From a virus (Duplodnaviria; Heunggongvirae; Uroviricota; Caudoviricetes), in the IMG/VR virus record IMGVR_UViG_3300045988_005753: a stretch of DNA of 64,000 nucleotides; one strand, written 5' to 3'. The translations under genes were made by a program, and so were the position numbers. Position 1 is the first letter of the stretch; every line of letters starts with the position of its first letter. Below, piece by piece: positions 3,731 to 34,664 of this stretch. The notes under the pieces are model-generated. The model made no database searches, was not told the origin of the DNA, and saw only the letters and a program-made list of their open reading frames with translations.

Positions 3731-4234
3731 CTATAATTGTAGGTTGCATTCTTTACTTACCTCTTCAAGTTTAACCTCAGAATCCTTAAGTCGTTTCTTA
3801 TGAACCCTGAATCTCATTAGTGAGATGATAATACCAGCTAAAGGAACAGTATACAAGTACCAGATATCATGTAGCTTTGCAGTAATCTGTGTAATGGTCA
3901 AGTCTTGAGCTATGTAGCTGATTGCTGATACGGCTAGCAATGTTGCTAAGAAGAAAACCAGTATCATAACAATATTCAGACAACCTCTGGCGTGGTATTC
4001 ATGCTTAATGCACTTATTCTTCTCTTCAACAACCCTGTTGTAGTCATTTGTAAAGTCTCTGTAGAAAGCTTTCAAGTATTCTTGATTGTAGCCTTCAAAG
4101 CAACCTGTACCATACCAATAATCACCACCAAAATGTGCTATGATACCAGTATCTCCATTTGGTTTGGTTACTCTTAAAGAAGTATGATGACGAGTATCCT
4201 GGTAATCTATCTTATATCTCTCTTCAAAAATCAT
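3731..4234 (-). CDS. membrane protein (one hydrophobic segment)
   Basis: ATG at 4234 overlaps the upstream stop (ATGA) and has a GAGGGG RBS; hydrophobic stretch IVMILVFFLATLLAVSAISYI. Confidence 0.55.
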   Translation of the reverse strand: MIFEERYKIDYQDTRHHTSLRVTKPNGDTGIIAHFGGDYWYGTGCFEGYNQEYLKAFYRDFTNDYNRVVEEKNKCIKHEYHARGCLNIVMILVFFLATLLAVSAISYIAQDLTITQITAKLHDIWYLYTVPLAGIIISLMRFRVHKKRLKDSEVKLEEVSKECNLQL

Positions 4235-25779: not shown

Positions 25780-26177
25780 GACTCTTAAACAGACACAGCT
25801 TTGTAGTAAAGCGTAAAGTCTCTGAAGACGGTTATTACAATGATGATGGTGATTGGGTAGCTTCACAAGATATTGTAGAGGTTAACTGTAAAGGTAATAT
25901 CCAGCCATATATCAAAGGTTCTGTAAAGAATGGTACACAGATTGCTTTACCGGAAGGTATCAGGCTTACCGATACAAGAATCCTGTATACTACATATAAA
26001 CTTAGAACTTCAGATGATGTAGAGTGGAATGAGTCTGACATTGTTATGATTGATGGTCATGAGTATGAAGTATTTATGACTATGGATTGGTCACAGCAAT
26101 TAGCCCATACGTCCCATTATGAATATATCATTATTAGAAGGGATAAAATGAATGCAGTTAGAAACAGCAGAACTTGA
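25776..26177 (+). CDS. head-tail joining protein (positional)
   Basis: ATGA-coupled 133-aa ORF. Confidence 0.5.
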   Translation: MRLLNRHSFVVKRKVSEDGYYNDDGDWVASQDIVEVNCKGNIQPYIKGSVKNGTQIALPEGIRLTDTRILYTTYKLRTSDDVEWNESDIVMIDGHEYEVFMTMDWSQQLAHTSHYEYIIIRRDKMNAVRNSRT

Positions 26178-26751
26178 AAAAGGTCTAGTTAGAACCTTAG
26201 TGGATGTTATTGGTCACAGACTAGCTCGTGATAAAAATAATAGACCAAACGTAATTAGAGCTTACCCTTCTGATAACTCAAATGACAAAGGTTTAAAACC
26301 TGACCAGCCATTTATTACCGTATATTGTCAAGATGCTGCAACACCTTATGGTTGGGTTCTTGATAAGTTTGTTGAGGATGATGTAGTTTGCTACAGAATT
26401 GCTTTTCAGATTCCTGTACTAATTACGGTGAATGGTAAAGGTGCTCACAGCATCATGCTTGAGCTTAAACAACGATTAGAGATGAGTTCAGTCAGAGATT
26501 TAATTCTTGAAGAGACAGGAGCTACAGTTCTAGACACTGGAGCTATTCCAAATGACTACACTTATCTTAATACAGATTTCGAAAATTCTGCACCTCTTGT
26601 TGTAACTCTTGTAAAAAATTCGGTCCTGAAAGATGAACGTGGAAGTATTATCGAACGTGTTATTGTGGATGGTGAATTAGTTTACGAAGAAGGACAAGAG
26701 CCACCAGAATATACTATCCATCTAGATGTAGACTCCAAAGGGGTAAAATAA
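26152..26751 (+). CDS. tail completion protein (positional)
   Basis: 199-aa ORF overlapping the upstream gene by 26 nt. Confidence 0.5.
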   Translation: MQLETAELEKGLVRTLVDVIGHRLARDKNNRPNVIRAYPSDNSNDKGLKPDQPFITVYCQDAATPYGWVLDKFVEDDVVCYRIAFQIPVLITVNGKGAHSIMLELKQRLEMSSVRDLILEETGATVLDTGAIPNDYTYLNTDFENSAPLVVTLVKNSVLKDERGSIIERVIVDGELVYEEGQEPPEYTIHLDVDSKGVK

Positions 26752-28104
26752 ATGTGGAATCCAATTGTTAATGTAGATATTACATTGAACACCGCAGGAA
26801 CTACAAGAGAAGGTTTTGGGCTGCCACTATTTTTAGCTTCAACAGATAATTTTGAAGAAAGAGTGCGTGGTTACACTTCCTTAACTGAAGTTGCTGAAGA
26901 TTTCGATGAGAACTCTGCTGCATATAAAGCTGCTAAACAACTTTGGAGTCAGACTCCTAAAGTAACTCAGCTTTATATTGGTAGACGTGCTATGCAGTAT
27001 ACTGTATCAATTCCTGATGAAGTTTCTGAAAGCACAGATTATTCTCTAACTGTAGCTGTTAGTGGTGGAGTTTCTCAGCCATTCCAGTACACTGCACAGT
27101 CAGAAGATACTGCTGAGAAAGTACTACAGCAGTTTAAAACACAGATTGAAGCAGAGCCTTCTGTTAAAGACCTTGTTACAGTTAATGTAACTGGTTCTGG
27201 CGGTTCAGCAACAATGGTAATTACCAAAGCTGGTGATAATGACTTCGTGAAGGTGACTTCTACAGCACAAACAGTATCAATTGCAAGTACTACTGCTGAC
27301 ACAGCATCGACTGCTCTGGCAGCTATTGAAGCTTATTCAACTGACTGGTATTTCATTGCAGCAGAAGACAGAACTCAACAGTTTGTCTTAGCAATGGCTT
27401 CTGAGATTCAAGCTCGCAAGAAGATTTTCTTTACAGCTAACTCCGATGTAACAGCCCTACAAGGCACAGAATTAGCTAGTGCAAACGATGTTCCAGCACA
27501 GCTTGCTAAGAGTCAGTACACTCGTACCGTTTGCTTGTGGCATCACACAGCAGCAGAAGACTATCCAGAAATGGCATACATCGCTTATGGTGCTCCGTAT
27601 GATGCAGGTTCAATTGCTTGGGGTAATGCACAGTTAACTGGTGTAGCTGCTTCTCTACAGCCATCTAATCAGAGACCTCTGACAAGTATTCAGAAGTCAG
27701 CTTTAGATGCACGTCACTGTAACTTTATTGACCTTGATGGTGGTGTTCCAGTGGTTCGTAGAGGGATTACTTCTGGTGGGGAATGGATTGATATCATCCG
27801 TGGTGTTGACTGGTTAGAATCAGACCTGAAAACTTCTCTGAGAGACTTGCTAATTAACCAGAAGGGTGGTAAGATTACTTATGATGATACTGGTATTACC
27901 CGTATTCGTCAAGTCATTGAAACCTCTCTGCAAAGAGCAGTCAACAGAAACTTCCTGTCATCTTACACAGTTAATGTTCCTAAAGCCTCTCAAGTTGCTT
28001 TGGCAGACAAGAAAGCTCGTATCCTGAAAGACGTTACCTTCTCAGGTATCTTAGCAGGGGCTATCTTGGATGTTGACTTGAAAGGTACAGTGGCTTACGA
28101 ATAA
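26752..28104 (+). CDS. tail sheath protein
   Basis: 450-aa ORF immediately upstream of the tube gene and chaperone pair; myovirus gene order. Confidence 0.6.
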   Translation: MWNPIVNVDITLNTAGTTREGFGLPLFLASTDNFEERVRGYTSLTEVAEDFDENSAAYKAAKQLWSQTPKVTQLYIGRRAMQYTVSIPDEVSESTDYSLTVAVSGGVSQPFQYTAQSEDTAEKVLQQFKTQIEAEPSVKDLVTVNVTGSGGSATMVITKAGDNDFVKVTSTAQTVSIASTTADTASTALAAIEAYSTDWYFIAAEDRTQQFVLAMASEIQARKKIFFTANSDVTALQGTELASANDVPAQLAKSQYTRTVCLWHHTAAEDYPEMAYIAYGAPYDAGSIAWGNAQLTGVAASLQPSNQRPLTSIQKSALDARHCNFIDLDGGVPVVRRGITSGGEWIDIIRGVDWLESDLKTSLRDLLINQKGGKITYDDTGITRIRQVIETSLQRAVNRNFLSSYTVNVPKASQVALADKKARILKDVTFSGILAGAILDVDLKGTVAYE

Positions 28105-28119
28105 TAGAGGTAAATTGGA

Positions 28120-28566
28120 ATGACTATGTATCAGCAATATTCCCCTAAAGACGTTGTGTGTAGCTGGAATGGTATTGCCATTGAAGGCTTTGCCCCAGAC
28201 TCATTCTTACGTCTACAGAGAACATCACCACTTGTGACACCAGTTGTAGGTGCAGGTGGTCAAGTTGCTCTGACAAGAAATGCAGACAAGACAGGTACTA
28301 TTGAGATTGAGCTAATGCAGACTTCTCTCTCTAACCAGATGCTTTCTGCAATTCAAGCTAAACAAGACAATATGGAACTTGAAGAAGATATCTCTTCTAA
28401 CTTCGTAATCTACGACCCATCAGGCTCTGTTCTGGCAACTGGTATTAATGCTTGGTTGCAGGAATTACCGCAGATTGAACTTGGTCGTGACCAGAACTCT
28501 AAAACTTGGATTTTTGGTTGTGAGAAGCTAGACTACACTTCTACAATTCCAGCGTCAAGTGTTTAA
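28120..28566 (+). CDS. tail tube protein
   Basis: 148-aa ORF after the sheath gene with AGAGG RBS, followed by a terminator. Confidence 0.6.
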   Translation: MTMYQQYSPKDVVCSWNGIAIEGFAPDSFLRLQRTSPLVTPVVGAGGQVALTRNADKTGTIEIELMQTSLSNQMLSAIQAKQDNMELEEDISSNFVIYDPSGSVLATGINAWLQELPQIELGRDQNSKTWIFGCEKLDYTSTIPASSV

Positions 28567-28576
28567 TAAATCCTAT

Positions 28577-28612
28577 AAGGGGGAGACTTTAAAAGGTCTT
28601 CCCCTTTTTTGT
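28577..28612 (+). terminator. rho-independent terminator after the tail tube gene
   Basis: AAGGGGGAGAC ... GTCTTCCCCTT stem followed by a T-run. Confidence 0.6.
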
Positions 28613-28639
28613 TTCTTTTAAAAGTATTAAGGAATCACA

Positions 28640-29038
28640 ATGAAAACAGAATCTAGAGTAATTAATGGTAAGAAAGTAAATATTGTTCTGCTTGGGGCAA
28701 GAGATGGTATTAAGATGTCTATGAAGTTGGGTAAAATTGTTGTTCCAACCTTTGCACAGATGCTGTCAAGTCTGACTGATAAAGACAAGAAAGAAGCTCC
28801 AATGGTTCCATTTAAAGAACTTGTTGAAGCTTGTTTTGACAGAATTGAAGAAATTAACCTTGAAGAAATAGCTACATTACTATTTCAAGGGGCAACTGTC
28901 GATGACTTCCCACTTAATATTGATACGTACTTCCAAGCAAACTACGGTGAGTTTATTGATTACTTAGCATTTGCGCTGGAGGCAAACTTCGGAAGTTTTT
29001 TCGAAGCAAGCATTTTCAAAAGCCTAACTTCTCAGTAA
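28640..29038 (+). CDS. tail assembly chaperone (upstream frame)
   Basis: position between tube and tape measure genes; slippery T_TTT_TTC at 28996-29002 near its 3' end. Confidence 0.6.
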   Translation: MKTESRVINGKKVNIVLLGARDGIKMSMKLGKIVVPTFAQMLSSLTDKDKKEAPMVPFKELVEACFDRIEEINLEEIATLLFQGATVDDFPLNIDTYFQANYGEFIDYLAFALEANFGSFFEASIFKSLTSQ

Positions 29039-29040
29039 AC

Positions 29041-29279
29041 ATGGGTAACACTCTACAGACACCACTAACTGATGCTGCTGTAGAGGCAACCTATGAAGAA
29101 GCAGACGAGATGAAATTTGTGCTTGCTATTTATGGTATGGAAGGGTGTAAAGAAACACTTGACCAACTCTTTGCTATGACATTCTCTGATTTATTATCAT
29201 TGAGACAATTTCTTGAGATTCAGAGGTCGTATAAAGAGGAAATTGCTTACAACGAACTTAGAAGAGCAGGAAAAATGTA

Positions 29280-29280
<1 letters not shown>
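29041..29280 (+). CDS. tail assembly chaperone -1 frame extension
   Basis: in the -1 frame relative to 28640-29038; the -1 frame is open from the slippery site to 29280. Confidence 0.5.

Positions 29281-34664
<5,384 letters not shown>

Follow-up and report, generated by a model that had tools for sequence, protein, structure and literature searches.

Between the tube and tape measure genes of a Felix O1-like phage lie two small open reading frames, 28640-29038 (ORF1) and 29041-29280 (ORF2). The question raised by this locus is whether the two encode separate proteins or whether some ribosomes join them by slipping back one base at a T_TTT_TTC heptamer near the end of ORF1. The window, meaning the whole 64,000-nucleotide stretch of viral DNA that was analysed, comes from a Felixounavirus (Felix O1-like); within it, region 28100-29600 shares 99.3% identity with Escherichia typing phage 1, and 295 phage records match this region. 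Most Felixounavirus records, including those of the window's nearest relatives, carry two separate small genes or "hypothetical proteins" here. The evidence assembled below argues strongly that ribosomes reading the tail assembly chaperone gene undergo programmed -1 frameshifting, and this is very probably how the locus is expressed.

Gene neighbourhood and reading frames

The locus is part of a run of tail genes, and its features are the following:

26152-26751, + strand: neck terminator
26752-28104, + strand: tail sheath (phrog_205)
28120-28566, + strand: structural protein of 148 aa in the tube position, directly after the sheath gene (phrog_280, Pfam KPP10_Orf10)
28577-28614, + strand: strong intrinsic terminator-like hairpin (28577-28606, 13-bp stem) plus T-run, between the tube and chaperone genes
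28640-29038, + strand: tail assembly chaperone, zero frame (the "G" equivalent), 132 aa without a slip (PF21822, phrog_1613)
28996-29002, + strand: slippery heptamer T_TTT_TTC (P site, UUU 28997-28999; A site, UUC 29000-29002); re-pairing is possible with UUU UUU at 28996-29001
29002-29280, + strand: extension in the -1 frame, equivalent to "T", with 92 codons and a stop, including the annotated ORF2 (phrog_4963 tail assembly chaperone, E 2.8e-55)
29041-29043, + strand: ATG taken by annotators as the ORF2 start, 2 nt after the ORF1 stop and lacking a Shine-Dalgarno sequence
29280-31508, + strand: tape measure protein (phrog_4036, E 0; Pfam TMP_3)

The order sheath, tube, ORF1, ORF2, tape measure, together with the Pfam and PHROG matches, bears out the original prediction that a chaperone pair occupies the space between the tube and tape measure genes. 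ORF1 matches Pfam PF21822 (Phage_TAC_15) over residues 9-124 with 73.2 bits (gathering cut-off 22, E 3.7e-20) and the tail assembly chaperone family phrog_1613 with E 2.7e-48. Its AlphaFold model matches phage (myophage) tail assembly chaperones in BFVD, the best structural match being the deposited 212-aa fusion of phage Moogle. A Foldseek search of the PDB with the same model gives no convincing solved structure, only a weak match (E 0.41, TM 0.47 and 0.58) to 5ir0, which is ORF19 of the Vibrio cholerae PICI-like element PLE. A PDB sequence search with the fusion protein gives no match, and a protein search with the -1 frame extension returns six short ORFs and no natural fusions.

A tube function for the product of 28120-28566 is suggested by its gene position. 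The terminator-like hairpin that follows coincides with a rho-independent terminator annotated at the same place in phage wV8; termination at 28577-28614 would leave the chaperone and tape measure genes less transcribed than those of the sheath and tube. At the other end of the locus, the tape measure ATG overlaps the -1 frame stop at 29278-29282 (ATGTAATG), an arrangement in which ribosomes that have made the long chaperone would end at the tape measure initiation codon, allowing translational coupling.

Read from the window sequence, the heptamer TTTTTTC occupies 28996-29002 on the + strand. The ORF1 codons AGT TTT TTC at 28994-29002 encode Ser119-Phe120-Phe121 and place T_TTT_TTC in the zero frame of ORF1, where the original prediction had put it; the sequence and frame check finds all of its coordinates right. 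The ORF1 stop, TAA, lies at 29036-29038, with eleven sense codons between TTC and the stop, so that the predicted distance of twelve codons holds with the stop codon included. Relative to ORF1, ORF2 lies in the -1 frame. The -1 frame has no stop from 28960 to 29280, which includes a 26-codon overlap with ORF1 and agrees with the claim that this frame is open from the heptamer through ORF2 and that a fusion is possible. The predicted products are a 132-aa short form and a 213-aa fusion made of 121 zero-frame and 92 -1-frame residues. The last C of the heptamer is forced, as a T in its place would make TGA in the -1 frame.

A heptamer of this kind may also arise without any recoding, from a conserved Ser-Phe-Phe in an AT-rich genome. 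The 84 window ORFs of a crude set (~18,400 codons) contain 62 in-frame X_XXY_YYZ heptamers, and in 38 of these Y is A or T; by chance, 0.05-0.09 heptamers are expected in the 26-codon overlap. This expectation is not negligible, and the single genome is therefore only suggestive, weak evidence. An origin by chance is also favoured by Phe codon usage in the window, where TTT is the commoner codon (435 vs 310 TTC). Even so, TTTTTTC is found at the chaperone site alone among the 62 heptamers, and the -1 ORF that follows it runs for 94 codons, against at most 29 after each of the others.

Conservation of the slip site and a natural control

The comparison with relatives covers 55 Ounavirinae-type loci: 31 viral contigs, fetched via the well-conserved tube protein as a neutral anchor, 18 metagenome contigs fetched with the chaperone alignment, and six annotated phage regions. 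A profile search of genome contigs with the chaperone alignment yields no matches. All 55 loci, with chaperone identity down to 39%, share a zero-frame T_TTT_TTC at homologous codons and a -1 ORF behind it; in the complete contigs this ORF has 94-100 codons and runs up to the tape measure start. The most distant relatives returned by tblastn are two rV5-like Vequintavirinae, Cronobacter phage PBES 02 (L057, 1848) and Escherichia phage TH18 (L058, 1773), which share 28-30% protein identity with the window and have the same heptamer, at the homologous NYGCFF, in the same frame and with a -1 ORF. Their -1 ORF is longer (~125 codons) and ends 52-65 nt before the tape measure start. Loss of the heptamer in homologs had been named as an outcome that would speak against the prediction, and with 55/55 Ounavirinae-type and 2/2 Vequintavirinae loci that refutation fails decisively. 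In the PBES 02 and TH18 records, the annotated downstream ORF is only small and separate.

T_TTT_TTC is the only heptamer in the overlap that is conserved across the relatives. Their -1 frame opens just 1-15 codons 5' of it, which pins the shift to the heptamer and leaves no other place for it. When the region is compared with Erwinia phages by blastn, the alignment is limited to window positions 28985-29025; nucleotide identity forms an island around the site, the rest of the gene having diverged. Some Felixounavirus loci contain a second in-frame heptamer, A_AAT_TTC, 12 nt 5' of the main one (L023 at 3865; L038 and L040 at 2845); it arises by an AAC-to-AAT change, lies within the open -1 frame and does not occur in the window.

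Codon choice at the site also bears on a chance origin. In a codon alignment of 15 divergent sequences, Ser119-Phe120-Phe121 is AGT TTT TTC in 15/15, whereas TTT and TTC both occur in each of four other columns with invariant Phe (8:7, 3:12, 6:9 and 3:12), and synonymous sites are frozen solely at the slip codons. Because Ser-Phe-Phe is invariant as protein, which in itself favours chance, part of the nucleotide conservation comes from protein constraint. Of the six serine codons, however, AGT is not the one preferred in the window genome (224, vs 434 TCT and 352 TCA), yet it stands at the slip site in every one of the 15 sequences. A homolog that lacks the -1 extension has TCA TTC TTC instead, and the conserved 92-codon ORF, which has no start codon in many relatives, needs a route of expression. 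Chance formation of the heptamer thus retains next to no probability, and its conservation in relatives places the site well beyond chance.

The homolog with TCA TTC TTC serves as a natural control. It is found in the chromosome of Buttiauxella noackiae (a prophage), is 46% identical to the window's chaperone and has non-slippery codons for Ser-Phe-Phe; the -1 extension is absent, and the gene precedes tape measure, Dit-like and hub genes. Directly after it comes a gene that starts with an ATG of its own; its 201-aa product is colinear over the full length with the fusion predicted for the window, the junction included, with E 8e-13 (E 9e-7 for the extension alone and E 3e-4 for the chaperone part). 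The window's -1 extension aligns with residues 108-194 of this single-ORF protein. By this comparison, the fused architecture does occur as an ordinary protein in Buttiauxella, where Ser-Phe-Phe is no longer spelled with slippery codons. In the deposited sequence (JPRU01000001.1; L056 6001-6986), the chaperone and the 201-aa protein are two genes that overlap at TAATG. The genes 5' of the Buttiauxella chaperone match no PHROG family, and neither a sheath nor a tube gene is recognised among them.

The ORF2 start and the hairpin over it

The main alternative to a frameshift is that ORF2 is translated alone, by termination and reinitiation at the ATG 2 nt past the ORF1 stop, with the terminating ribosome opening a hairpin that covers this ATG and with the heptamer being incidental, or with reinitiation adding to frameshifting in the window's clade. 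The sequence TAA-AC-ATG is a typical coupling arrangement, and ORF2 is annotated as a separate gene in most GenBank records. The ATG nevertheless lacks a Shine-Dalgarno sequence, and its position is not conserved. In 7/15 divergent relatives the -1 ORF offers no ATG, GTG or TTG as a start ahead of codon 40, which lies well inside the conserved domain, and one of the 15 sequences has TTG only. Within Felixounavirus itself, contig L015 has ATA in place of the ORF2 ATG (3922-3924; IMG/VR 3300045988_004167).

The peptide encoded by the -1 frame is conserved from the heptamer on, as FFRSKHFQKP or, in other lineages, FFRSSYP[KE][KR]P. The part upstream of the ATG (FFRSKHFQKPNFS) is conserved and aligns with the normal Buttiauxella ORF. 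Reinitiation leaves this peptide unexplained, as it does the frozen AGT TTT TTC codons and the relatives that have no start codon.

A further observation in favour of reinitiation is structural:

29040-29095, + strand: RNA hairpin that includes ATG 29041 (helix 1, 29040-29045/29090-29095; helix 2, 29051-29064/29073-29085)

The hairpin has an MFE of -24.7 kcal/mol (z -2.55) and begins 38 nt after the heptamer. Across 14 distinct Felixounavirus, Mooglevirus and Suspvirus sequences, 16 pairs are predicted and 97.8% of cells are paired. Six pairs have both sides changed, some of them via amino-acid (non-synonymous) changes. Six such changes were matched in 1/500 shuffles, and slid controls gave at most one such pair, although the covariation comes from a small number of independent lineages. 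The hairpin is present only in lineages with an ATG near the ORF2 start position, an association that favours reinitiation; it is absent from Kolesnikvirus, P778 and the L050-L054 lineages, as well as from lineages that have no ATG there.

In view of the startless relatives, the conserved peptide ahead of the ATG and the frozen codons, reinitiation is improbable as the account of how ORF2 is expressed. Some independent translation of ORF2 from the ATG after the ORF1 stop may nonetheless occur in the window's own clade. A start 38 nt 3' of the heptamer makes the hairpin too distant for a classical stimulator. It might still form a second layer of control on the chaperone pair, either by gating termination-reinitiation to give a free T-domain protein or by modulating the slip from a distance of 38 nt; we regard this as doubtful. 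Control by the hairpin, if true, would depart from the simple lambda model of one fixed ratio.

Stimulatory elements, mechanism and known systems

For the preferred reading, a -1 slip at T_TTT_TTC, the next matter is what might stimulate it. One candidate lies 5' of the site:

28978-28982, + strand: internal Shine-Dalgarno-like GGAGG, candidate 5' stimulator, 13 nt 5' of the heptamer

In ~53 kb of coding sequence, GGAGG is found within gene bodies at only nine places, this one included. Stimulatory Shine-Dalgarno-like elements of -1 shifts are spaced 9-14 nt 5' of the heptamer (PMC5009743), and the 13-nt spacing in the window falls within this range of the dnaX/IS-type signal. The element is kept in 10/15 divergent relatives, with exactly the same 13-nt spacing in rV5-like TH18. 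It is absent from Kolesnikvirus, L036, L046 and Cronobacter phage PBES 02 (L057), and Yersinia P778 has GGAAG only. GGAGG is thus likely a dispensable enhancer of the slip, a function suggested by its sequence and spacing and not shared family-wide.

On the 3' side, the original prediction had asked for a search for a downstream stimulatory structure. Single-sequence folds and a family-wide alifold find no stem-loop or pseudoknot that begins at the usual distance of ~5-9 nt past the heptamer; the nearest real hairpin is the one that starts 38 nt 3'. The first 65 nt 3' of the heptamer fold with -3.6 kcal/mol, weaker than shuffles, and the family alifold consensus 3' of the heptamer reaches -0.79 kcal/mol with nil covariation. 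With no conserved structure at the usual 3' spacing, the slip rate could be low. Rfam has no match at 28900-29100, and its weak matches, far below gathering scores, lie only over the terminator at 28500-28690.

Three other candidates for a signal were considered. The heptamer is flanked by the palindrome CTTCGGAAG...TTTCGAAG, and a terminator-like hairpin lies at 28976-28992; both were rejected as signals, neither being conserved in relatives. Ribosomes pausing at the ORF1 stop might stimulate the slip by collision, an idea set aside because the distance from heptamer to stop varies from 34 to 61 nt among relatives.

A shift at the same bases could in principle come from RNA polymerase rather than from the ribosome: at the T6 run, the polymerase would add one U, and the resulting subpopulation of mRNA would yield the fusion. 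The homopolymeric run at the site and the weak hairpin with T-run just 5' of it (28976-28992) are consistent with such transcriptional slippage, and hairpin-assisted slippage is known in IS elements (PMC5009743). Productive bacterial runs, however, comprise ~9 A or T (PMC5009743), and a run of six is short by this measure; the upstream hairpin is not conserved in relatives. The motif, moreover, has all that tandem slippage requires of a heptamer, in the correct frame, and the tested homologous tail chaperone systems (lambda G/GT) shift on the ribosome (PMC5009743). Transcriptional slippage is accordingly very unlikely, more so than reinitiation.

The ribosomal slip fits what is known of shift-prone sequences in E. 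coli, where UUN A-site codons are prone to shift and where all-pyrimidine codons and all-pyrimidine X and Z shift better (PMC4066793). U_UUU_UUC agrees with these rules in having a UUN A-site codon, pyrimidines throughout and cognate re-pairing. The site, the frames and the conservation are observed; the slip, how often it happens and what the two products do are inferred, as follows. Most ribosomes would translate 28640-29038 and release the 132-aa chaperone. A minority would slip with tRNA-Phe on UUU 28997-28999 in the P site and tRNA-Phe on UUC 29000-29002 in the A site, both tRNAs shifting one base back onto UUU UUU. Decoding would then resume with CGA at 29002 in the -1 frame and continue to the stop at 29278-29280, giving a 213-aa product that consists of the N-terminal chaperone domain and a 92-residue extension. 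By analogy with lambda G/GT, the short form may coat the tape measure protein, while the extension of the long form may recruit tube subunits, and the ratio of the two would be determined by a fixed rate of slipping. GGAGG 13 nt 5' of the heptamer may boost the slip rate via pairing with 16S rRNA, as in dnaX, and no 3' structure at canonical spacing is expected to take part. In the searchable literature, no experimental detection of the fusion product was found for any Ounavirinae phage.

The main use of this result is a correction of the gene model. On the comparative data, the true products of the locus would be the 132-aa protein and the 213-aa frameshift fusion, and, since Felixounavirus phages are used in Salmonella and E. 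coli typing and biocontrol, accurate models of their tail genes are of some practical value. Modest additions are that the same T_TTT_TTC extends from Ounavirinae to rV5-like phages with <30% protein identity, that a prophage relative has swapped the frameshift for two genes while losing the slippery codons at the same time, and that a clade-specific covarying hairpin lies over the ORF2 start. The frameshift itself is supported, ordinary and already known; biologically, it is nothing new in kind.

The closest known cases are the Citrobacter phages Michonne and Moogle (Ounavirinae, Mooglevirus), whose genome papers state the frameshift (PMC4591319, PMC4319497); in GenBank KT001916 (phage Michonne, of the same subfamily), the CDS is annotated as joined by ribosomal slippage, placed at the homologous heptamer. 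They share with the window a homologous gene (73% protein identity), an identical T_TTT_TTC at homologous codons and a -1 ORF that ends at the tape measure start, and their fusion has 212 aa compared with 213 in the window. They differ in genus and in the place of the downstream candidate ATG. For these phages, as for the window, the frameshift is a prediction and not an experimental demonstration.

E. coli dnaX resembles the window in having an internal Shine-Dalgarno-like sequence 9-14 nt 5' of the heptamer (13 nt in the window; PMC5009743). Unlike the window, dnaX uses A_AAA_AAG and needs a close 3' stem-loop, a structure that the window does not have. Compared with the dnaX signal, the window's Shine-Dalgarno-like element is not conserved throughout its family.

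Phage P2 E / E+E' is like the window in that the phage is contractile-tailed and the chaperone pair lies between the tube and tape measure genes. Its heptamer, T_TTT_TTG, is also T-rich; the last base differs, as does the protein family.

The lambda heptamer is G_GGA_AAG. Lambda differs further from the window in being a siphovirus with no detected sequence similarity, and its product ratio and binding partners are known, whereas those proposed for the window are projected from it. In lambda G/GT, as in the window, two overlapping ORFs lie between the major tail and tape measure genes (the class of Xu, Hendrix and Duda 2004), and there a minor fusion arises when ribosomes slip by -1 close to where the first ORF ends, without the need for a 3' structure (PMC5009743). 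In its gene position, its overlapping second ORF, its in-frame slippery site and the conservation of this site in diverged homologs, the window's chaperone locus has the features of the G/GT type.
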